Shown here: positions 16,264 through 38,629 of the stretch, piece after piece | Numbering within the stretch: the stretch's first letter is position 1 | Layout of the letters: every line of letters begins with the position of its first letter | Origin: a virus | Lineage: Duplodnaviria > Caudoviricetes | Strand: one strand, 5' to 3' | Virus record (IMG/VR): IMGVR_UViG_3300007363_002496 | Span: 1 to 38,629 of that record | Length of the DNA: 38,629 nucleotides | Notes under the pieces: generated by a model | What the model was told of the DNA's origin: nothing | The model's input: the letters and a program-made list of their open reading frames with translations, nothing else | The model's database searches: none | Translations under genes and position numbers: made by a program

Positions 16264-18231
16264 ATGAAACAATTATTTATTGCCGTAATGGCCTTCTTCT
16301 TTGTCACTTCAACCGCATACGCGGTTTCGACACAGTTAGATTTTTCAAATGGTGTAGTCCGCTTTTTCAAGCCAATGCACACAGCTTCACTGCAAGTACC
16401 AAGCGTTATCGCAACATCAACCACTGCAACTTCCAGCTTCCCTATTCTTTCGGTAGGTAAGCTCTTAACCGAAGGTACTAGTGCTGGTGGTTTTACCACT
16501 TTTGATTCTACCAGTAGACTTGTTCAAGAGACATACCAAAAAGCAGAATACCCCGGCCACTATAGTGAACTTCAACGCCTTATTTGGCGTGATGATCTTG
16601 CCAAACCAGTAATAGCTTTTCAGGATGGATCCGGTGCAAATACAGCAACGCCTAAATCAAAAGCATGGCTGGTAGCACACAACCTCTCAAATGGTACTCA
16701 ACCATACGCAAACTTTGCTTCCTTCCCTGCTACTGTATACGGTCCAAACACTACCCCTGCACAAGCGGACTATTTCTACATGGATGAAGCCACTGACACG
16801 TTTTACCGCTGGGATGGAGTAACTACTACTAATAACGGCACAATCGCGGCAGGATCATGGGTAGCACTCACGGCACTAGAAGAGCTGTATGGTCCAAGAC
16901 ACCAACATTTTTCAGTTGAAACTACGGATGATGGTGGAAACAATCTGTATACCAGATGGGCAGTGCAATACGATGAAACTATTCCACTTCAGTCATTTGT
17001 GAATAGTAACTACCGCTTTTATGCTGGTACATTCCTTGGCCAAGACTATGGAAATTTCATCATGGATGGCCGGATGTACAACACCAACGACTTCCAGTTT
17101 TACCCTACTGCTACTAACACCAACGACCATAAGAACCTAGTCAGCAACAACACCAAAGGTTTTCGCATCCAGAAATCATCCCAACCTATCACTGGTACGG
17201 AAGAAACAACACTGAGCGCACTAGGATCTAACTTTCTCTTTGTAAATGATGCACTCAACGTGCTTTCTACTGGCTATTACAGTGGGAATTTGAGTGTAGG
17301 TACTACTAACGCAAACGCTAGAGTGACCATTCAAGGCACCGGATCAAATGATTTGCTTGATGTCGATAATAGCAGTGGCAGTAGTGTCTTCACCATTCTT
17401 GCTAGTGGCGCTACACGACTCCTTGGAATCACTGAACCAACCGCACCATCGGCCGGTAATCTGCTAACATATGCAAAAAACATAGCTGGCGAACTATTTC
17501 TTTTCATTAAGAATCCGGCTGGCCAATCAATGCCAACACAAGATGCGTTTTGGAATCAAGCCACTTACATGTGGAAGCCTACCACCGCTACTGATGGTCT
17601 TTGGATAGGTACTGCCGGAGCCGGCGCTGGTACGTTTGCCAACACGCTTCCTTCAAACAGCACTCTCTACACTCAAATGAAGCGAGCTAGATACTCAAAC
17701 GTAGCTACTACTACAAACCAAGTACTTGGCCAGCGAAATACTGAAGCGATGTGGTGGCGTGGTGATTCAGCCGGAGAAGGGGGATACTTTGTGTGCTCAA
17801 ACTTTGGGTACAACACTTGGACTAATGGCAGTCGCCATTTCTTTGGTTTACATTCTGGAACCACTGTAGTTTCAGCCGAACCATCAGCACTTAACAACAC
17901 AGTCGGATTTGCAGTAGATTCCGGTGATAACGGCGCAATTTCATTCTTGACTCGAGATGGTAGTGCTGCTACTAAAGCACCAACTGGCTTGACTATTGTG
18001 AGTGGCAAAGGGTACAAAGCATGTTTCTACGCAGCACCAAACAGCTCATCAATTGGCTGGTGGATTAAAGACATAAACACTGGTACTGAAGCATCTGGTA
18101 CAGCCACAAATACTCTTCCAACCAACACTACTTTCCTCACTGTAGGGGTCCTCGCATCAAATGCGGCACTGACAGCAGCTAACGCAACACAATTGGAAGT
18201 CAACCAAATCACGGTCCAGTCTGATTACTAA
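16264..18231 (+). CDS. Tail-fibre/adhesin-like protein with N-terminal signal peptide
   Basis: T/S/G/N-rich beta protein; GNLSVGTT fibre motif; MKQLFIAVMAFFFVTSTAYA signal-like start. Confidence 0.65.
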   Translation: MKQLFIAVMAFFFVTSTAYAVSTQLDFSNGVVRFFKPMHTASLQVPSVIATSTTATSSFPILSVGKLLTEGTSAGGFTTFDSTSRLVQETYQKAEYPGHYSELQRLIWRDDLAKPVIAFQDGSGANTATPKSKAWLVAHNLSNGTQPYANFASFPATVYGPNTTPAQADYFYMDEATDTFYRWDGVTTTNNGTIAAGSWVALTALEELYGPRHQHFSVETTDDGGNNLYTRWAVQYDETIPLQSFVNSNYRFYAGTFLGQDYGNFIMDGRMYNTNDFQFYPTATNTNDHKNLVSNNTKGFRIQKSSQPITGTEETTLSALGSNFLFVNDALNVLSTGYYSGNLSVGTTNANARVTIQGTGSNDLLDVDNSSGSSVFTILASGATRLLGITEPTAPSAGNLLTYAKNIAGELFLFIKNPAGQSMPTQDAFWNQATYMWKPTTATDGLWIGTAGAGAGTFANTLPSNSTLYTQMKRARYSNVATTTNQVLGQRNTEAMWWRGDSAGEGGYFVCSNFGYNTWTNGSRHFFGLHSGTTVVSAEPSALNNTVGFAVDSGDNGAISFLTRDGSAATKAPTGLTIVSGKGYKACFYAAPNSSSIGWWIKDINTGTEASGTATNTLPTNTTFLTVGVLASNAALTAANATQLEVNQITVQSDY

Positions 18232-20784: not shown

Positions 20785-21042
20785 TTAATAACTAATTACT
20801 CTCCATCCTCTACTGATATCACTGTATAGATACCCTGTGTAGTCATGTGGGTATCCAGTATTGTAAGAGAGTTTTCTAAACCTTATGTATGCTCCGATTC
20901 TATCGACTACTGTGCGTTTCCTATTGCCTGGAGATATCACGACCGACCCTTTTTTTAATTTATCGAACTGTCTTCGAGTCATTGTTTTACTTTTCAACTC
21001 TACCTTTGCCGGCAACTCTCTTTTACAGTGAGGACAGCGCAT
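20785..21042 (-). CDS. Hypothetical protein with N-terminal CxxC
   Basis: MRCPHC; basic, 85 aa. Confidence 0.65.
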   Translation of the reverse strand: MRCPHCKRELPAKVELKSKTMTRRQFDKLKKGSVVISPGNRKRTVVDRIGAYIRFRKLSYNTGYPHDYTGYLYSDISRGWRVISY

Positions 21043-21043
21043 A

Positions 21044-21460
21044 CTATTCTTCCCCTCTTAGCTTGATAAACATCGCTTCAGTAAGCTCAGCATTAAACTC
21101 AATCTGATCATGGCAGCACTGGCACGCTACTACCCACTGCTTTGGAGAAGCCAATAGAACTGCATCCCCTTTGTACCACGCTCGCTTATGGCGGTGAGCT
21201 GGTGCTAGTGGCCAAGTCTTGGTGCATCCTTCCAGATTCAGCTCACAGACCTTCATATCCATGGCCTTGGCGTAGTCCGCAATCAATCCTCTGGCGGTTT
21301 TATTGGCCTTACCGACCTTACCTACCTTCCGGATGTTTTTCTTCACCTTGAGCGTTGTATGGCTTTTCAGTGTGGTCCTGGTAGTCAAACCTTTACGCTC
21401 AGACTTACCGTATACACTGCCCCACGGCTTTCTTGGATTTTTAAATGTTGATTGTTTCAT
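21044..21460 (-). CDS. HNH-type Zn-binding nuclease-like protein (NinG/Ref-like)
   Basis: CELNLEGC...PAHRHKR...VVACQCCHDQI after a basic N-terminus; start moved to MKQSTF because 21441-21587 is a separate gene. Confidence 0.65.
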   Translation of the reverse strand: MKQSTFKNPRKPWGSVYGKSERKGLTTRTTLKSHTTLKVKKNIRKVGKVGKANKTARGLIADYAKAMDMKVCELNLEGCTKTWPLAPAHRHKRAWYKGDAVLLASPKQWVVACQCCHDQIEFNAELTEAMFIKLRGEE

Positions 21461-21587
21461 TTTTAGTTTTTTTAGGACGACCACCTTTCTTTCCATTCTC
21501 ACGTACTGCTGCGGCTTTGGCTTCGCTCTTTTTCTTTCCACCAAGGCGGCCAAGAGCTACCGCGTGGGGATTCTTATTTGTTGACAT
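21441..21587 (-). CDS. 48-aa basic KGG/AT-hook-like DNA-binding protein (not in ORF track)
   Basis: MSTNKNPHAVALGRLGGKKKSEAKAAAVRENGKKGGRPKKTKNETINI. Confidence 0.8.
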   Translation of the reverse strand: MSTNKNPHAVALGRLGGKKKSEAKAAAVRENGKKGGRPKKTKNETINI

Positions 21588-21741
21588 CGAGTACTGCTTT
21601 AACGATTAAACCTACGTACATTTGGCTTAGACTTTTCTTAGTATCCATTTGCTTCACTAGCTTCTTGATCTCATCTTCATCCCTTAGATCCTGGTGTACT
21701 GCTTCACGAACGATATCGCGCATCAGTTGTTGTTCAAACAT
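21574..21741 (-). CDS. 55-aa hypothetical protein, first gene of the leftward operon (not in ORF track)
   Basis: MFEQQLMRDIVREAVHQDLRDEDEIKKLVKQM...; downstream of a consensus promoter. Confidence 0.7.
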   Translation of the reverse strand: MFEQQLMRDIVREAVHQDLRDEDEIKKLVKQMDTKKSLSQMYVGLIVKAVLDVNK

Positions 21742-21769
21742 AATTTATTTCTTATTAACTAATACGCTT

Positions 21770-21798
21770 AGGTTATCAAAACGCTTAGGTTTTGTCAA
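21770..21798 (-). promoter_or_regulatory. Leftward sigma70 promoter overlapped by two 11-bp direct repeats
   Basis: Minus strand TTGACA-17 bp-TAACCT with extended TG; ACGCTTAGGTT at 21764-21774 and 21781-21791. Confidence 0.8.
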
Positions 21799-21817
21799 AG
21801 CCCTCATAAACATGATG

Positions 21818-21850
21818 GGGATATCGCTATCACTTTCAACGTGCTATCCT
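21818..21850 (+). promoter_or_regulatory. GGGATA-class promoter, leaderless
   Basis: GGGATATCGCTA...TG-C-TATCCT, 6 nt, ATG 21857. Confidence 0.6.
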
Positions 21851-21856
21851 TTTGAC

Positions 21857-22141
21857 ATGGGCAAAAAGGTTGTTAATGAAGACTATGCAAAACCACTATT
21901 CACTCGCATCTACCGGAAGCACCGTAAGATGTTAGATGAATTAGTGCACAGCTTTCCTCTCATAAAAATTAAATACCCACGTAAAGATGGTCCACAAGAG
22001 CGCCCAATTACCGACACTGAAGTGGTCCAAGTAGCAATTGAAAAGCTACACCATCGCCGCGTAATTGCACCTACAAAACAACATGGCACAAGAAACATAC
22101 ACAACAAAGCTATTTCATCCGATAACTCTCGAACAGATTGA
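21857..22141 (+). CDS. Possible ribbon-helix-helix transcription regulator
   Basis: Strand PLFTRIY, helix RKHRKMLDEL, helix ITDTEVVQVAIEKL; transcribed divergently from the leftward operon. Confidence 0.5.
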   Translation: MGKKVVNEDYAKPLFTRIYRKHRKMLDELVHSFPLIKIKYPRKDGPQERPITDTEVVQVAIEKLHHRRVIAPTKQHGTRNIHNKAISSDNSRTD

Positions 22142-22265
22142 ATGTAGAGTATTTTTAAACTATTATGGCCTTGGTCATGATGGCTACCGTTTTAAAGGTG
22201 ATTCAGTGATGTATAGTAAAGAGGAACTAGATGCGATGGCTCCACAAACCGAGCCATCCGGCTAG
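22083..22265 (+). CDS. Hypothetical protein
   Basis: 60 aa from MAQETY. Confidence 0.6.
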   Translation: MAQETYTTKLFHPITLEQIECRVFLNYYGLGHDGYRFKGDSVMYSKEELDAMAPQTEPSG

Positions 22266-22290
22266 GTTTTATAATTAACTTTACGTGCTT

Positions 22291-22404
22291 ATGAACACAG
22301 AAGATACAACTGTCGACAGTGCAGCAGAAGAAACTAGTGAGGAAACTGAAGCGGAAACTACCGATGAAGAGACCGAGCAAACTGAAACCGAAGCAGCAGA
22401 GTAG
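22291..22404 (+). CDS. 37-aa extremely acidic peptide (not in ORF track)
   Basis: MNTEDTTVDSAAEETSEETEAETTDEETEQTETEAAE; 16 D/E, no K/R. Confidence 0.65.
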   Translation: MNTEDTTVDSAAEETSEETEAETTDEETEQTETEAAE

Positions 22405-22467
22405 TAGAATGGATTTAGATTGTTCTTTCTACAATTAAATACCTCCAAAATTCTAACGCTAAGAGTA

Positions 22468-22493
22468 AAGGCCCGCATGTTATTGCGGGCCTT
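22468..22493. terminator. Hairpin between convergent genes
   Basis: AAGGCCCGCA-TGTTAT-TGCGGGCCTT, perfect 10-bp stem. Confidence 0.75.
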
Positions 22494-22532
22494 GCTCGTA
22501 ACCCTGAGCAGGGAGATAAGGATCACCTCCTT

Positions 22533-22703
22533 TCAGCGGTTGTGCGATTCGCAGTATGGGCAGTCCGGTATCTCGACAGCACCGTGAACGGGGCATTTTC
22601 TGGTGGCTTCTTGCCTTCGCACTTCGGAAATGTGCGGGATAACCGGTGCCGCGAGATCGAGCCGGTCCGGCATGGGTAGTGACAATTGCTTTTCATGCTG
22701 CAT
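22533..22703 (-). CDS. 56-aa protein with CxxH...CxxC zinc-finger-like C-terminus (not in ORF track)
   Basis: MQHEKQLSLPMPD...KCPVHGAVEIPDCPYCESHNR; AAGGAG SD 7 nt upstream; own promoter. Confidence 0.7.
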   Translation of the reverse strand: MQHEKQLSLPMPDRLDLAAPVIPHISEVRRQEATRKCPVHGAVEIPDCPYCESHNR

Positions 22704-22735
22704 GGTCCTTCTCCTTGGTGAACAAACCTACTTCT

Positions 22736-22764
22736 ATTATGTGGATAAACTGTGGATTGGTCAC
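22736..22764 (-). promoter_or_regulatory. GACCAA-class promoter overlapping two DnaA boxes
   Basis: Minus strand GTGACC-AATCCACAGTTTATCCA (17)-CATAAT. Confidence 0.65.
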
Positions 22765-22996
22765 TGAGTAACCGTGTACAGAAGCAGTGTATCAACTGTG
22801 GAAAATCTGTGTATAACTGGTCCACTATCCCTACTGGCTTCTATGTGCTGTTTTTTGTACACACCTTTTTCCCCATATGTTCACACTTTATTCACAGTCA
22901 TTACTCTCCAAATACTGTGCAATTACTCTACAATTTGCACTTTCCCACATCTCCACAGGGCTAATAGTAGTAATAAATTTTTTAAAAAAGAAATAA
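22740..22996. other. oriC-like replication origin: DnaA-box array, DnaA-trios and AT-rich tract
   Basis: Exact TTWTNCACA at 22740(-), 22797(-), 22808(-), 22888(+). One or two mismatches at 22751, 22786, 22855, 22867, 22877, 22941, 22949. Then GGG, CTA-ATA-GTA-GTA-ATA and an A/T run. Confidence 0.85.
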
Positions 22997-23023
22997 GACA
23001 CTGCTATCCCCATGGTGTATGAT
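22995..23023 (+). promoter_or_regulatory. Rightward sigma70-like promoter next to the origin
   Basis: AAGACA-17 bp-TATGAT; spacer contains CTATCCCCA. Confidence 0.5.
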
Positions 23024-23068
23024 AAAGCTACCCGTGGTGGGAGATATGCTAATCTTAAAATTAAATTT

Positions 23069-23572
23069 ATGACACAAATTTTTAAAGTATTGAAGAATTT
23101 TGAATTAGATGGTGAACCGGTCCGGATTGGCCAAGAAGTAGTGTGTCGAGCACGTGAAGCTGAAGCACTACAAAAACAAGGTTTTATCACACCATCAGAC
23201 CGTGAACTTGATCCGGCTGAGCCAAAGGATGCTGAGCTGATTGCAAAGAGTAAGTCTCGAGCTGAAAGACGACATAGTGAAATCACTGGCGCAGAAGCCC
23301 AGCGTGATGAAGAAAAGAATGAACGTGAAATTGAGAAGGATGTTGACCGGGTTGCTCGAGTAGAAAAAGCCAAAGTCTTGGCTGAAAAAGTCGGTCGCAT
23401 TGAGGATATAGAAGCACTTGAAGCCATGACGATTGAGCAGTTAGATAAGGAAATTGAAGTGATGAGTGCTGCTCTTCCAGCGGAAAATAAAGAAGAGACA
23501 GAAGAAACAACTGAAGATGCCAAGCCAGAAGCACCAGCACCAACTTCACGCAATCGAACTGCTAAGGGATAA
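23069..23572 (+). CDS. Charged hypothetical protein with a small N-terminal domain
   Basis: MTQIFKVLKNFELDGEPVRIGQEV...EAEALQKQGFI, then coiled/acidic; AT-rich leader before the ATG. Confidence 0.7.
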   Translation: MTQIFKVLKNFELDGEPVRIGQEVVCRAREAEALQKQGFITPSDRELDPAEPKDAELIAKSKSRAERRHSEITGAEAQRDEEKNEREIEKDVDRVARVEKAKVLAEKVGRIEDIEALEAMTIEQLDKEIEVMSAALPAENKEETEETTEDAKPEAPAPTSRNRTAKG

Positions 23573-23598
23573 CGCTAGCGGTATCCCTGTGCTAAGAT
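23566..23598 (+). promoter_or_regulatory. GGGATA-class promoter within a 22-bp near-palindrome, leaderless
   Basis: GGGATAACGCTAGCGGTATCCC (one mismatched pair), TG-C-TAAGAT, 6 nt, ATG 23605. Confidence 0.7.
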
Positions 23599-23604
23599 TT
23601 AGGC

Positions 23605-24198
23605 ATGGCACGTGGGAGTAAAACAAAAACAGCAAAACAACAAGAAGCTGCCATCAAGGTGGTCCAAGAAAAGAGCCTGGATTTAACAGAGGATGTGGAT
23701 CGTTATGATTCTAAAAATCCTCGACAGGCTCTTTTTTTGCAATTGTATTTTGACCACCGCTCACCTACGTGGGGAAACGCAAAGCAGTCAGCTATTGCTG
23801 CCGGATTTAGTGAAGAATATGCGGATGTAATTACCTACCAACAACCTAAGTGGTTCTCGGATTTCATCGGGCAACAAGATATCGCTTCACTTATTGAAAA
23901 ACATGTGGCAGAAGTGTTAAACCTCCCAACCGTGACTCAAGCTATGGGTGCTTTTGGTCCCATAACCACCACTGAAACCATCAAAGTAGAGAAAACTTTT
24001 AAAAATGGTAAAACCCGACTAGTGAACAAAAAGATTAAGGTCCCAGTCTACGTACCAAACATCAACGTGATCAAAGAGAAAACGGCTGTGATGAAGATAG
24101 CAGCACCCGCGCACAATCCAGAAAAGTACGGTAAGAAGACTGGTGGCAATAACAATTTCTTTTTCGATATGCGCCAAACTAAAGAGCGATACACATGA
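23605..24198 (+). CDS. terS: Terminase small subunit
   Basis: PRQALFLQLY...GNAKQSAIAAGFSEEYA HTH pattern; overlaps the terL start. Confidence 0.85.
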   Translation: MARGSKTKTAKQQEAAIKVVQEKSLDLTEDVDRYDSKNPRQALFLQLYFDHRSPTWGNAKQSAIAAGFSEEYADVITYQQPKWFSDFIGQQDIASLIEKHVAEVLNLPTVTQAMGAFGPITTTETIKVEKTFKNGKTRLVNKKIKVPVYVPNINVIKEKTAVMKIAAPAHNPEKYGKKTGGNNNFFFDMRQTKERYT

Positions 24199-25790
24199 AA
24201 TACCGTTTGTTTATAGAAGAAAATTTTATGATCGACTTCGCCAATACCGGCGAGTTGGTGCCTTTTAAATTCAATCCGGTACAAGAAATCTACTACGAAG
24301 AGCTATGCCGTGATTACGATATCGAAAAGAAGGGTATCAATATCCCGATTCGAGAAAACATTTTGAAGGCTCGGCGCGAGGGATTTTCTTCTTTTATCCT
24401 TGGTTTGTTTGCTGCTGATGATCTGATGAACGATAATCCGACTGAAACGGACGTACTTTCATACAAAGAAGATGCCACCAATATCTTTCGGAAGCGATAC
24501 CGCACGTACCTACTCTCTTTTTTTGCAAAAGAATTTGGCGTGTCTCAACAACAGGTACGCGACAACATCAACATCCTTGAGGAAATTGCACCCAATGTAT
24601 TTTCAACCGATGCCAATGACATCACATTGAAGCACAATAAGGCTCACTTTCAATGTAATACCGCCAGCGCTCGAGTGGGTGGCCGTGGTGGTGTACGCCA
24701 TAAGATTCTCTTTTCCGAGATTGCTTTCTATCCAGATACTCAAAAAATTCTGGCCAGTGAGATGATTGAAGCTACCATGCGACAGGTAGATCCCGCATCC
24801 GGCTGGATATTTGCTGAATCTACCGAAAACGGACAGGGGACATACCAACACCGCATGTGGGTGGAAGCAAAACGTGGGCGCTCTCGCTTTAAAAACCGCT
24901 TCTATGGCACTGGCCACTTCTATGATGAAAAGCAGTTGGCAATTATTAAGTCGGAATACGTGGACATGGATTCATTCCGGCGTGACTATCCGCAAACAGA
25001 AGACGACCTATTCAAAGGATCCGCACGTTCTTTTACCTCAGAAGATCAGCTTACCAAGCTCATCGACCATCCGACAGCGGATAAAGACTTTGTGTACGCT
25101 GCTGAATTCCAGCACCAAAACGGAATGGACGTGGCTGAAATTATGGCGCACGACCTAGAAAAGCTGGCACGTGCTCATGAAGGGCGCTCCTTATACGTAG
25201 GAATTGATGAAGCGAAAGATATTGATGCCACTGTAATGTTTGTACTACGCGACCGCAGAAGGTCACTAAGGGGAGGGGTAAAGGGTATTGAAATCGATAC
25301 TACACGTGGCGATTGGCTAGCTGACTGGTTTGAACGTAACACAAATTACTACGTAAAGCGGGTGAAATTTAGTAGACCATCTAAATCACTCATGTATTCC
25401 AACCTTCAAATCGTTATTGAAGATGAGCTCACTTCCCTTCCTGAGTGGAAAACGCCAGACGGCCAGTTTGTTTCGAAAGAAATGGAGCACTTTTATAACC
25501 AAATGATCACACTCGAGAAGGAAATCATTGGTGGAATGTTGGTAGTCCGACACCCGCCCGGCTCATGTAGCAAGAATGGCCACAACTATGATGAATGTCC
25601 GTACCATGATGACTATCCAGATGCTTGGATGATGGCTGAAGATATTTACGTGGATATAAATGGTGTACCAGAGCGCAAAAAGAAACCAGAAGTGCCATCA
25701 GTACCAAACATGATTCAAGGTATTCTTGACAAAGGTACTATTCGAGATCCCCGCCGTAACCGTGGGCGTTATGAAAGCTCATTTGAATAG
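24195..25790 (+). CDS. terL: Terminase large subunit
   Basis: FNPVQ, ILKARREGFSS (Walker A), ILFSEIAF (Walker B), ESTENG, YVGID...D, HDDYPDA. Confidence 0.95.
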   Translation: MKYRLFIEENFMIDFANTGELVPFKFNPVQEIYYEELCRDYDIEKKGINIPIRENILKARREGFSSFILGLFAADDLMNDNPTETDVLSYKEDATNIFRKRYRTYLLSFFAKEFGVSQQQVRDNINILEEIAPNVFSTDANDITLKHNKAHFQCNTASARVGGRGGVRHKILFSEIAFYPDTQKILASEMIEATMRQVDPASGWIFAESTENGQGTYQHRMWVEAKRGRSRFKNRFYGTGHFYDEKQLAIIKSEYVDMDSFRRDYPQTEDDLFKGSARSFTSEDQLTKLIDHPTADKDFVYAAEFQHQNGMDVAEIMAHDLEKLARAHEGRSLYVGIDEAKDIDATVMFVLRDRRRSLRGGVKGIEIDTTRGDWLADWFERNTNYYVKRVKFSRPSKSLMYSNLQIVIEDELTSLPEWKTPDGQFVSKEMEHFYNQMITLEKEIIGGMLVVRHPPGSCSKNGHNYDECPYHDDYPDAWMMAEDIYVDINGVPERKKKPEVPSVPNMIQGILDKGTIRDPRRNRGRYESSFE

Positions 25791-35486: not shown

Positions 35487-36415
35487 AAAAGATTCTTATT
35501 ACCGGCGGGCTGGGATTTATTTTCTCTCACGTCACTGAGCATTTAATCAAAGGGGGGAATGATGTGATGGTCCTTGATAATCTATCGGCTGGGTCACATC
35601 CCCAACTGGCTGATGTATTTAAGCGCCTAGCACCACAGTACAATGCCCGCTTTACCTTCGTGGAAACGGATGTCTCTTTCACTACCACTATTCCAATCAT
35701 CACTACTTTCAATCCGGAATACATCATCCACGCGGCCGCTATTTCTGATGTCGACTACTCAATCAAACAGCCAGTGAAGACTATTCAGGCCAACAACAAC
35801 GCCACACTGAACGTCTTTGAAGCCGCACGCCAGCTTAAAAACCTCAAGAAGCTTCTGTACGTGTCGACTGATGAAGTCTATGGCGAGTGTGATCATCCTA
35901 AAGGTGAAGAGGAAATCATCTTCCCCAAGAATCCGTACTCACTATCAAAAGCATTTGGCTCGATTCTGCGCCTTGCCTACGACAATACCTATCCAGAGCT
36001 GAAGGATAAAACCGTGGAGACACGCTTTTGTAATGTGTTTGGTCCACGCCAAGATGATCGCAAAGTGATTCCCGCTATCAAACGTGCTCTTAATGGTGGT
36101 GCACCACTAGTCGTACACAATGGGGGAAATGGCTACCGGCAATACATACACGTATCTGAAATCCCGCCAATCATCTCGATGCTACTTGAAGTTGGCAACC
36201 GCACGTACAACGTCACCACCGGAGAAGGGCTGACTGTAAATGAGCTGATATGGCACGCTAGTCAAATTGCAAATAAAGAAGTACCTACGGTCCCTGGAAA
36301 GCGCAGTGGCATGGATATCAAATACCAGATGAATCCGACCCGCTTAATTCACGAACTTGGCTGGAAGCCACAGCGAAAAATGCTAGAGTGTTTGAAAGAG
36401 TATCTACTTTCATGA
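35483..36415 (+). CDS. dTDP/UDP-glucose 4,6-dehydratase (RmlB-like extended SDR), allele B C-terminus
   Basis: ILITGGLGFI, HAAAISDVD, YVSTDEVYG (TDE), PKNPYSLSK (YxxxK), NVFGPRQ. Confidence 0.93.
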   Translation: MKKILITGGLGFIFSHVTEHLIKGGNDVMVLDNLSAGSHPQLADVFKRLAPQYNARFTFVETDVSFTTTIPIITTFNPEYIIHAAAISDVDYSIKQPVKTIQANNNATLNVFEAARQLKNLKKLLYVSTDEVYGECDHPKGEEEIIFPKNPYSLSKAFGSILRLAYDNTYPELKDKTVETRFCNVFGPRQDDRKVIPAIKRALNGGAPLVVHNGGNGYRQYIHVSEIPPIISMLLEVGNRTYNVTTGEGLTVNELIWHASQIANKEVPTVPGKRSGMDIKYQMNPTRLIHELGWKPQRKMLECLKEYLLS

Positions 36416-36804
36416 TCACCATTCACACTACACCGCCACCAAATTGGGATGCACTTGCATCATCATTCGGCGTGAAGTGGGAAGGTAGCTTAGTAGTGAC
36501 CTACGCCGGTGAGATCTACTGCCCGAGTGGAGTAGTCGCACCGGATGTTTTAGTGCATGAGATGGTCCACGTAGAACAGCAACGCGGTATGGATATGGAG
36601 ATCATGCTACAGCGGTACATGAATGATGTGGAGTATTTAAAATCGGTAGAGATACCAGCTTTCAAAGCGCAAGCCGCCTTTATTGATGCAACCCTTCCGG
36701 AAGCTCAAGCGTGGTGCCGGAAATACAAGATAGCCAAGACCATGGTGAGAATGTACAAAGGTGCCTTTACAATGGAAACCGCTAGCGGTATCATGAATCT
36801 ATGA
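36412..36804 (+). CDS. HExxH metallopeptidase-like protein, allele B
   Basis: LVHEMVHVEQQ; homologous to 379-807. Confidence 0.65.
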   Translation: MITIHTTPPPNWDALASSFGVKWEGSLVVTYAGEIYCPSGVVAPDVLVHEMVHVEQQRGMDMEIMLQRYMNDVEYLKSVEIPAFKAQAAFIDATLPEAQAWCRKYKIAKTMVRMYKGAFTMETASGIMNL

Positions 36805-36938
36805 AAATCTTTCAAGCATTAGTGGAGTGGGTACTGGCGTATGCAGCCATCATTGGAGCGCTCTTTACTGGCAAGATGATGTTGTCTGATGATAGTGACC
36901 TACCACCACACTTACGCCGAGAAAATATCTATGATTAA
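36801..36938 (+). CDS. 45-aa small membrane protein, allele B
   Basis: MKIFQALVEWVLAYAAIIGALFTGKMMLSDDSDLPPHLRRENIYD; homologous to 773-907. Confidence 0.75.
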   Translation: MKIFQALVEWVLAYAAIIGALFTGKMMLSDDSDLPPHLRRENIYD

Positions 36939-38031
36939 GCTCTTTCAACCATACGTATCACAGCAAGCACGCGACAATGTACAGCGGGTTTTAATGGGTA
37001 CACAATTGGCGCAAGGGCCAGAAGTGGAATTGTTTGAACAAGAATTTGCAGCTAAGTTTGGTTTTGAAGCATGGCAGATTGTTTCACTTAACAGCGGTAC
37101 ATCCGCATTGGAATTGGCGTATGAACTCTTGGAACTTACCCGCTATGACCACGTGATCTCACCAGTACTAACGTGCACCGCTACCAACATCCCCTTGGTC
37201 CGGCGTGGGGTGAAGATGAGTTTTGGCGATATTGAAGGAAAGAAGTCACTGAACATGTGTCCGGAAGATGCATCATTCAAAATACTTCCCGAAACCAAAG
37301 CTATTGTATTCGTGCACTTTGGCGGATCATCACGCAACCTACAAGCCTTTGAAGAACTGACCGAAGAGCATGGCTTGGACTTGGTATGTGATGCAGCACA
37401 GGCACTAGGCGCTGAGCTATCCCGCAAAGCACGTTTTTCATGCATCTCACTACAGGCCATAAAATCGCTCACAGCGGGTGATGGTGGCGTACTGGTATGT
37501 CGGGATAAGGACGATGCAATTAAAGCCAGAAAGCTACGCTGGTTTGGATACGATAGGGAGCTAAAACAGCGACTAGGTGACTGCGACTTGGAATTGGCCG
37601 GATATAAGATGCACATGAACGATATCAACGCTGCTATCGCTCGAGGTAATCTGGCAGTGTGGGATGAGGTAGTGGAGCACCGCCAACGCATTAACGATAT
37701 ATACAGTGATTATTATTCAGCGTATGTGTCAAGATACAGTGAGAAAGTTGCTTCTCGATTTATAGAGGGTATCTGGAATCCTCAAGTTACTGGCTTAGAC
37801 TACGAAACGTACAGTAGTTTTACAAACAAAGCTGATCCTCTTTCTGTATTCCCCGGCTTTGAAATTGGCCAATATCACTACCGCAACGACAAATACTCAA
37901 TCTTCCGTAGCGTATATAGCAATTGTCCAAACATGGATGCTCTTGAAAAGTACTATTTTATGTTGCCTTGTCACATGGGTATGAGCTTGAAAGATGCAGA
38001 GATGATAGCTAAAACACTATGGCCAAGGTAA
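36931..38031 (+). CDS. DegT-family sugar aminotransferase, allele B
   Basis: Same motifs as 911-1990; start MIKLFQPY by homology. Confidence 0.95.
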   Translation: MIKLFQPYVSQQARDNVQRVLMGTQLAQGPEVELFEQEFAAKFGFEAWQIVSLNSGTSALELAYELLELTRYDHVISPVLTCTATNIPLVRRGVKMSFGDIEGKKSLNMCPEDASFKILPETKAIVFVHFGGSSRNLQAFEELTEEHGLDLVCDAAQALGAELSRKARFSCISLQAIKSLTAGDGGVLVCRDKDDAIKARKLRWFGYDRELKQRLGDCDLELAGYKMHMNDINAAIARGNLAVWDEVVEHRQRINDIYSDYYSAYVSRYSEKVASRFIEGIWNPQVTGLDYETYSSFTNKADPLSVFPGFEIGQYHYRNDKYSIFRSVYSNCPNMDALEKYYFMLPCHMGMSLKDAEMIAKTLWPR

Positions 38032-38432
38032 AAAGCATTATCAAAATCAAACCCTTTGCAATTTCTGAGCCAGTCTTCGGCTCATGTATTACATTCTGCG
38101 TGGGTATGACCTATGCTCAAATGATGAAAGAGTGTCAAAACGGTGATGTTGTATTTCCTAAAGGCTACGATGATCCAAAAGACCATGAAGATTCAAATGG
38201 TTGCGCGTTGGCTTGTGATAGCAAAGATGGCTCTTGCAAGTACAGAATCCTATGGCTTAGAGAAGCAAACAATCTGCCAGTGTTGGTCCACGAAATAGTG
38301 CATAGCGTGCAATTCATTTTTAAATTTAAAGGCATATCAACCACTGCTGATGAACCGGAACCGATGGCATATTTCTGTGAATTTTATTTCCGAGAAGCCT
38401 TTAATCACTTGAAAAAGAAAGCCGTTATTTAA
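38019..38432 (+). CDS. HExxH metallopeptidase-like protein, found only in allele B
   Basis: VLVHEIVHSV...EPMAYFCE. Confidence 0.7.
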   Translation: MAKVKSIIKIKPFAISEPVFGSCITFCVGMTYAQMMKECQNGDVVFPKGYDDPKDHEDSNGCALACDSKDGSCKYRILWLREANNLPVLVHEIVHSVQFIFKFKGISTTADEPEPMAYFCEFYFREAFNHLKKKAVI

Positions 38433-38434
38433 CT

Positions 38435-38629
38435 ATGAGCCAAATTACCGATTCAATTGCAAAGATAAAAGCACTTGCCAAGGTGCCTTTGGTAGATGAT
38501 AGAGAAGTGAAGCGGGTGGAAATCATCATACTCAAATTCAAAGAACCGCCGGAAGTGATAGACAAATGCATCTCACGCATCATACACAACACTGACTGGC
38601 CTTTTAAACTGACCATTTTTGATAACAGA
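38435..38629 (+). CDS. N-terminus of GT2 glycosyltransferase, allele B (truncated by window end)
   Basis: MSQITDSIAKIKALAKVP..., homologous to the gene starting at 2202. Confidence 0.9.
   Translation, partial: MSQITDSIAKIKALAKVPLVDDREVKRVEIIILKFKEPPEVIDKCISRIIHNTDWPFKLTIFDNR

Follow-up and report, generated by a model that had tools for sequence, protein, structure and literature searches.

According to current descriptions, phages begin replication with an initiator or priming protein that they encode themselves. The P1 prophage plasmid has an origin of DnaA boxes and RepA iterons at which RepA acts together with DnaA in initiation, and it needs its own RepA, iterons and ParAB. In lambda O/P and replisome-organiser origins, iterons and an A/T tract lie inside the initiator gene (PMC5043065). 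The specialised transducing phages lambda-asn carry oriC and were established as minichromosomes (PMC5835720), and E. coli datA is a DnaA-box cluster with an IHF site that promotes DnaA-ATP hydrolysis, for which the excerpts of that article describe neither trios nor an unwinding tract (PMC5835720).

In the basal unwinding system (BUS) of Bacillus subtilis oriC, which comprises incC boxes 6/7 and the DnaA-trios (PMC8287927, PMC10721633), a DnaA-ATP oligomer seeded by two co-oriented boxes captures the trio bases; 3′-GA-5′ is the preferred trio type, and the B. subtilis consensus box is box 6 (PMC10721633). The corresponding search rule demands one box with up to two mismatches to TTATCCACA and a partner box with up to four, a spacer of 0-16 bp that is mostly 10-13 bp from the better box, and at least three trios with a central adenine, with 3′-GAT-5′ the commonest beside the box (PMC8287927).

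Within the 38,629-nucleotide stretch of viral DNA analysed here (the window), the non-coding segment 22740-23012 agrees in sequence with these published rules for an oriC BUS (PMC8287927). It holds ten DnaA boxes with up to two mismatches to TTATCCACA, the minus-strand set first (all left of 22820) and the plus-strand set from 22855 on. Nine of them fall within 22740-22957; the tenth, at 23004 past the A/T run, had been overlooked by an earlier note on this DNA, and three weaker boxes with three mismatches lie at 22775, 22786 and 22877. The anatomy of the array terminus is as that note had described it: an overlapping tandem pair (22941/22949, 8-bp offset), GGG, five NTA triplets reading CTA-ATA-GTA-GTA-ATA, and an A/T run. 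Both tandem boxes have two mismatches to TTATCCACA, the spacer is 11 bp from the upstream and 3 bp from the proximal box, and all five trios (22961-75) keep the central adenine, the first being 3′-GAT-5′ and the other four not of the preferred type.

The likeness to the B. subtilis oriC BUS (PMC8287927, PMC10721633) thus extends to co-oriented tandem boxes, a short spacer, at least three central-adenine trios of which the first is 3′-GAT-5′, and an A/T tract, and by analogy the tandem pair would take the role of boxes 6/7. In contrast to that system, the phage module lies on a 36-kb phage and not next to dnaA/dnaN, its tandem boxes both deviate at two positions, and four of its five trios are 3′-TAT/CAT. 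Phage genes flank it on a closed 36-kb circle, so that it is not an oriC proper, i.e. a chromosomal one, here between dnaA and dnaN; the claim made for it is only that it may work like a bacterial chromosome origin.

An accumulation of boxes of this kind is not expected by chance. Per 250 bp, the cluster reaches four exact boxes, seven with up to one mismatch and eight with up to two mismatches to TTATCCACA, and each of these counts was reached in none of 200 dinucleotide shuffles, confirming the cluster of about 220 bp with four exact TTWTNCACA that had been noticed before. These four, at 22740(-), 22797(-), 22808(-) and 22888(+), make up half of the eight exact matches of the whole window. 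Scanning the genome as a whole supports the cluster but no general enrichment: eight exact boxes compare with 4.4 expected (8 of 100 shuffles reach eight), and 65 boxes at one mismatch with 91 expected. Matches to a sigma70-like promoter are likewise not above chance (6 versus 3.9 +/- 2.0), self-BLAST of the window revealed no iteron-like repeats around the candidate origin, and Rfam and tRNA scans gave no match. The features are collected in Table 1, where the ranking of 36-mers by duplex stability uses nearest-neighbour values that we assumed.

Table 1. Elements of the candidate origin, adjoining genes and related modules (positions refer to the window unless a locus is named)
Feature	Position	Strand	Remarks
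Small protein ORF, likely ribbon-helix-helix (RHH) fold	21857..22141	+	53-94 aa in clade
Short Cys-bearing ORF, variable	22533..22703	-	reads away from origin
DnaA-box pair, 11 bp apart, 0 and 2 mismatches to TTATCCACA	22740..22759	-	like minus-strand pair in relatives
Four boxes in 11-bp steps: 22775, 22786 weak; 22797, 22808 exact TTWTNCACA	22775..22816	-	
Four boxes 10-12 bp apart: 22855, 22867, 22877 (weak), 22888 (exact)	22855..22896	+	
Tandem co-oriented box pair, 8-bp offset	22941..22957	+	same arrangement in Paceibacteria dnaA-dnaN spacers
G/C spacer GGG	22958..22960	+	3-4 bp long in every clade member
Five DnaA-trio-like triplets, top CTA-ATA-GTA-GTA-ATA	22961..22975	-	bottom 3′-GAT TAT CAT CAT TAT-5′
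Trios and A/T run, predicted unwinding element	22961..22996	.	least stable 36-mer of genome, tied with 16245
Extra box past A/T run	23004..23012	+	within sigma70-like promoter match 22995-23023
167-186 aa ORF right of origin	23012..23572	+	weak DUF7210/HeH-like leads; initiator by no search
Terminase small subunit (TerS)	23605..24198	+	phrog_51, E 6.6e-6
Putative terminase large subunit (TerL), family marker	24195..25790	+	position, Walker-like motifs, one annotated match E 6e-7
Second-strain allele of sugar-modification cassette	36034..38629	+	outside ~36.0-kb unit; gives record linear look
Truncated initiator and inverted tandem-box/trio module	G090:C1 12199-12720; L029 580-1070		
Microvirus modules	L458 3400-3760; L459 1690-1920; L460 3790-3960		KT264804, KT264798, PQ006335

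What this arrangement suggests is that 22740-23012 is probably a phage replication origin opened by host DnaA instead of a phage initiator. By analogy with B. subtilis, host DnaA would bind the box arrays after circularisation, the tandem pair would seed a DnaA-ATP filament on the trios, and the A/T tract 22961-22996 would melt, whereupon host helicase, primase and polymerase would be loaded for theta replication. With less confidence, later amplification might be recombinational or of the rolling-circle type (the window encodes RusA and an HNH-like nuclease), and initiation might be coupled to transcription through the RHH protein and the box that lies in the rightward promoter. The two mismatches in both tandem boxes and the single trio of the preferred 3′-GA-5′ type speak against such an origin. 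Strand composition, which the earlier note had suggested as a check, gives a divided answer: four-fold-site skew shifts slightly in the expected direction (p 0.11, 0.026, 0.20), but GC and keto skew show no clean single switch (keto p 0.36-0.75), and in the window the minimum of cumulative skew falls elsewhere than at the origin. As in lambda-asn, phage DNA would replicate from a chromosome-type origin with host DnaA; those phages, however, are laboratory isolates with host DNA (PMC5835720), whereas the window belongs to a natural, conserved phage clade.

This clade was delineated with TerL. A single-protein locus search with the window TerL found nothing, and an alignment query was required, returning 110 loci (26, 4, 80) with L032 being the window. 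A quick tree of 40 rows, with L104 left out, groups the window with six relatives in one clade (SH-aLRT 99), whose members show 60-81% identity and, where measured, 44-57% GC; L092, L098 and L106-L108, short matches with inflated identities, were kept out of the clade count. By alignment, all seven members possess the minus boxes, plus boxes, tandem pair, 3-4 bp spacer, trios and A/T run, so the conservation in related phages on which the earlier note had made its case depend does exist. The module sits 1.2-1.7 kb upstream of TerL while the flanking genes vary, and its best-conserved part comprises the trios, the 3-4 bp spacer and the melting tract. In six of the seven sequences tested, no 36-mer is less stable than the one beginning at the trios (tied in the window), and in the remaining one it ranks second; an equivalent of the extra box at 23004 is also present in L003, L036, L044 and L033. 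A strict automatic detector, run on the 39 of the 110 loci that are non-duplicates with upstream DNA, recognised the module in five of the seven clade members (missing L002 and L037) and in two of the other 32 TerL loci (L041 and L029), most of these 32 being partial, compared with none in 459,693 reversed bases. TerL yielded no cultured relative, and BLASTN of the origin against 50,697 GenBank phages returned one short chance match (none for the origin region of L293, see below).

Further relatives differ in how they appear to initiate. Two without a BUS carry full-length initiators, namely G004 (259 aa, with internal iterons) and L005 (together with DnaB). In the complete relative G005 a BUS is missing, and no initiator was recognised either among the 10 ORFs scanned of the 52 listed or by the six-frame PF04492 search. 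L029, at 46% identity, is integrated as a prophage in a Patescibacteria MAG, together with an integrase gene and neighbouring host genes, which places a BUS inside a host chromosome. In both L029 and the unrelated complete phage G090, an inverted BUS comes after a gene for the N-terminal domain of an initiator (130-135 aa), and G090 retains iteron-like repeats and an A/T tract, its short trio run being missed by the detectors. To judge from their sequences, L029 and G090 are possible evolutionary intermediates in which the C-terminal half of the initiator was replaced by an inverted BUS. The more distant relatives L004, L006 and L029 have genes upstream of TerS that we take to be chaperonin-like (GroES/GroEL-like).

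Gene content was surveyed broadly. All 54 main window ORFs were scanned with PHROGs and Pfam, 33 window ORFs of at least 37 aa in 18.3-23.6 kb and 115 ORFs of relatives with PHROGs. NCBIfam was applied to 38 window ORFs, and phrog_270 (window) and PF04492 (G001, G002, G004, G005, G090) were searched in six frames. In the window, G001 and G002, these PHROGs, Pfam, NCBIfam and six-frame searches recognised no initiator, helicase, loader, primase, SSB, integrase or Par protein, and six-frame searches with phrog_19 and PF01695 found no DnaB or IstB/DnaC in G000, G001 and G002. The same scans do detect initiator-type genes in L029, L293, G004 and L005. The earlier statement that the phage lacks recognisable replication, initiator and integrase genes is thereby borne out, with many ORFs lacking a family: about half of the window ORFs are without a match, and not even the terminase is recognised by PHROG, Pfam or PDB. 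In this phage family, the absence of a recognisable initiator is weak evidence because complete G005 has neither BUS nor initiator. A DnaQ-like exonuclease is encoded in G001 and L033. Two candidates were set aside: ORF 20390 as DNA_pol_A was rejected (E 0.006, far under the cut-off), and the 1609-aa ORF is unlikely to be a conserved replication enzyme, with no PDB relative and no tblastn match in G001.

Measured against the described classes, the window contains neither a recognisable initiator gene with internal iterons nor a recognisable helicase or loader, and hence no recognisable lambda- or replisome-organiser-type origin. Related phages G004 and L005 do use such origins, while the window clade lacks initiator gene and iterons and G090 and L029 look half-way. 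With P1 the window shares the character of a phage replicon using host DnaA boxes, but RepA, iterons and ParAB are unrecognised in it; as many ORFs lack a family, this applies to recognisable Rep and ParA/ParB, and the RHH protein could be a centromere binder.

This RHH protein is encoded by the only non-structural ORF found to be common to the window and all five clade members with the region covered. Its model gave no significant Foldseek or HMM match. In a structure comparison (VIA-align), the best Z was 5.3 (clear = 8; rmsd 2.0 over 51 residues) in a list of mostly RHH proteins, and MetJ appeared in an atlas at 0.91 (rank 19). The predicted model makes an RHH fold likely and a role as repressor or copy-control protein likely as well; its structural neighbours are repressors, antitoxins and partition proteins, with no initiators among them. 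For the TerL ORF, which has no PHROG, Pfam or PDB match, the Walker-like motifs are what we take to be terminase motifs. The gene slot directly left of the boxes differs between members (L035 3104-4519, L033 7741-8082, L113 9394-9729), its products including a HerA-like ATPase with a winged helix and tandem HTH proteins. A 14-nt Shine-Dalgarno-like run, presumably complementary to the 3′ tail of 16S rRNA, is conserved at the end of a minus-strand ORF in the window (22455-22560(-)), L003 (8240-8345(-)) and L036 (1290-1400(-)); its fold comprises a hairpin and, after it, a terminator-like stem whose arms differ but remain paired (z -4.5), with no conserved ORF next and no Rfam match.

These neighbours bear on an alternative that we regard as unlikely, namely a hybrid origin at which host DnaA acts with an unrecognised phage protein, either the RHH protein or the variable HTH/HerA-wHTH product beside the boxes, that licenses or starts initiation. 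The RHH protein is common to the clade, an HTH gene (G001, L033) or the HerA-wHTH gene (L035) ends just before the boxes, and L029 and G090 combine an initiator N-terminal half with a BUS. The window, however, has no HTH or HerA gene at that slot, self-BLAST showed no iteron-like repeats in the region, and the RHH protein resembles regulators and partition proteins rather than initiators.

Searching for the BUS in other viruses puts the module into a wider context. With a loose pattern (one box plus trios), 121 loci were collected from 9 of 64 parts of the viral contigs; almost none had a tandem box, and they were judged to be chance. A first tandem-box pattern returned nine viral loci, six with convincing context, and a second one 110, compared with 43 for the control pattern. 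Among the matches of the second pattern, the first box was completed exactly in 42 (control 0), and at least four further boxes lay upstream in 37 (control 1), many of these 37 being one high-GC group and hence non-independent. In L293 (5671-8024), L317 (8001-10488) and about 25 similar loci, a group of ~34-kb phages of 64-69% GC whose terminase is nearest to that of actinobacterial phages, an inverted box array and BUS come after O-like and DnaB genes. In the Bacteroidota-like phage G091, which encodes its own DnaB, Toprim primase and Pol III alpha, some 12 closely packed boxes lead up to a BUS (G091:C1 ~16950-17250, L282), and in three GenBank microviruses box arrays, trios and an A/T run directly follow the replication gene. 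Going by these sequences, the BUS is a general module for DnaA recruitment in phages. Because it also occurs in phages with initiators, helicases and a rolling-circle Rep, it is by itself no proof of an initiator-free start, and it is a candidate sole origin only where no initiator is seen, as in the window. Our literature search, mostly outside subscription journals, found no report of DnaA-trios or a BUS in phage.

The same breadth lends some weight to a second alternative, which we consider rather improbable: the module might be a DnaA sink or recruiter, i.e. a datA-like stall of host replication, a helicase-loading or a transcription-control site, with replication starting by R-loops or recombination. 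Unwinding needs two boxes, whereas the module has 10-13; it is present in phages that encode a Rep or helicase themselves, too, and one box overlaps a promoter-like site. Like datA, it groups consensus and near-consensus DnaA boxes at a site other than oriC, but unlike datA as excerpted from PMC5835720 it has trios and a predicted unwinding tract. Titration requires boxes alone (datA, PMC5835720), yet the trios, spacer and melting tract are what is best conserved, and no recombinase or SSB was recognised for the alternative route.

The completeness of the genome was resolved by comparison with independent assemblies. The record has no terminal repeat and was classed as linear and 58% complete, and its end repeats its start (36034-38022 versus 1-1981 at 71%; 38435-38629 versus 2202-2396 at 87%). 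In the Logan assembly of run X1, which may be the source run of the window, a 36,063-base record has overlapping ends and zero differences to the window over 21000-25000, whereas the window tail 36188-38569 is a separate Logan record at about a third of the depth (5.8 versus 16.6). The record thus repeats its start at its end because a second-strain cassette allele was joined on, making it a two-strain chimera. Two further samples span the origin unchanged (run X2, 22461-23310; run X3, 22669-23048), and G002 (36,754 bases) and G001 (37,996 bases) are colinear permuted full circles with one sugar cassette each. Together, these data establish a ~36.0-kb circle as the genome unit and therefore exclude host misassembly at the origin, one of the conditions under which the earlier reading would have fallen; its description of the genome as closable holds in spite of the missing terminal repeat. 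The longest contigs among the 120 TerL homologs listed top out near 36-39 kb, and in view of this, the Logan circle and colinear G001/G002, the CheckV estimate of 58% was rejected. Two cassette alleles (36188-38569 versus 155-2536, 66-87% alike) co-occur in several samples; with their epimerase/aminotransferase/glycosyltransferase content, they possibly reflect surface-glycan or DNA-modification variation between strains. Runs X1 and X2 also contain another contig (2,449 bases in X1) that matches 22945-22992 only (41 of 48 bases), which could be either the host origin or another BUS-bearing element of the same samples.

That the module is a relic of a captured host oriC, an assembly chimera or chance is very improbable and largely refuted, for although the record end is a two-strain chimera and another contig in two runs matches part of the module, three runs span the origin without difference, the module is kept in 7/7 clade members at differing GC, and no dnaA or dnaN was found in the window or in the flanks of the 40 other BUS-bearing viral loci tested.

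DnaA scored over the cut-off in 77 of the 81 genomes of a Paceibacteria class sample, and 32 dnaA loci (L123, L124 and the best 30 of the 81-genome sample of L028's class) served as the host set. In Paceibacteria, the dnaA-dnaN spacer often carries the same order of elements as the phage module: minus pairs, plus boxes, tandem pair, spacer, CTA/ATA/GTA trios and A/T run, with the candidate-host origins using the same trio style. Compared with these predicted origins, the phage version is G+C-richer between boxes and has the extra downstream box. A loose BUS was present in 12 of the 32 host loci and the strict tandem form in six (control 0). A pattern derived from the phage clade matched 7 of 401 Paceibacteria-class genomes (control 0), in all seven cases between dnaA and dnaN, so the comparison with a candidate-host oriC, suggested previously, came out in favour of a shared layout. 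As it also matched 3 of 61 Bacteroidota genomes, this pattern marks origin-like sites rather than a host.

The host of this uncultured freshwater phage is likely one of the ultra-small Patescibacteria. For several relatives, a 0.1-micron fraction tag is part of the public contig name. Besides L029 in its Patescibacteria MAG, another relative was located in a Cytophagales MAG, and we found no CRISPR or physical host link for this clade. The proposal that the phage lives as a mini-chromosome on host DnaA consequently stands in part: the BUS anatomy, the complete genome with no recognisable initiator, the conservation and the match to candidate-host oriC support it, but a BUS is also found in initiator- and helicase-bearing phages, and G005 lacks BUS and recognisable initiator alike. 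Nothing in the sequence speaks specifically for the suggested titration of host DnaA or for an episomal life, as neither ParA/ParB nor an integrase was recognised, only the small protein with a likely RHH fold. Going further, tailed phages of Patescibacteria might be minichromosomes dependent on host DnaA only, having arisen via intermediates of the G090/L029 type, with the BUS as a general viral module acquired repeatedly in different hosts and kinds of virus, from microviruses to phages that encode a replisome; we would put the chances of this tentative scenario a little below even.

If true, replication of a natural tailed phage initiated by host DnaA at an oriC copy would represent another strategy, one that could account for some of the many complete phage genomes without a replication gene. 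The BUS would then be a sequence signal for origin and host prediction, and a 70-bp piece of the module could serve as substrate in the published strand-separation assay, to examine BUS function with a Patescibacteria DnaA. It also raises the question of how a once-per-cycle host initiator can be squared with the burst yield of a phage.

On the bacterial side, the dnaA-dnaN spacers of L246, L258 and L263 (Paceibacteria) contain the box/trio module in inverted orientation. All three Bacteroidota matches (L453-L455) adjoin what we take to be a nadA-like gene, and a nadA-adjacent BUS is perhaps a mark of oriC in lineages whose oriC lies away from dnaA.
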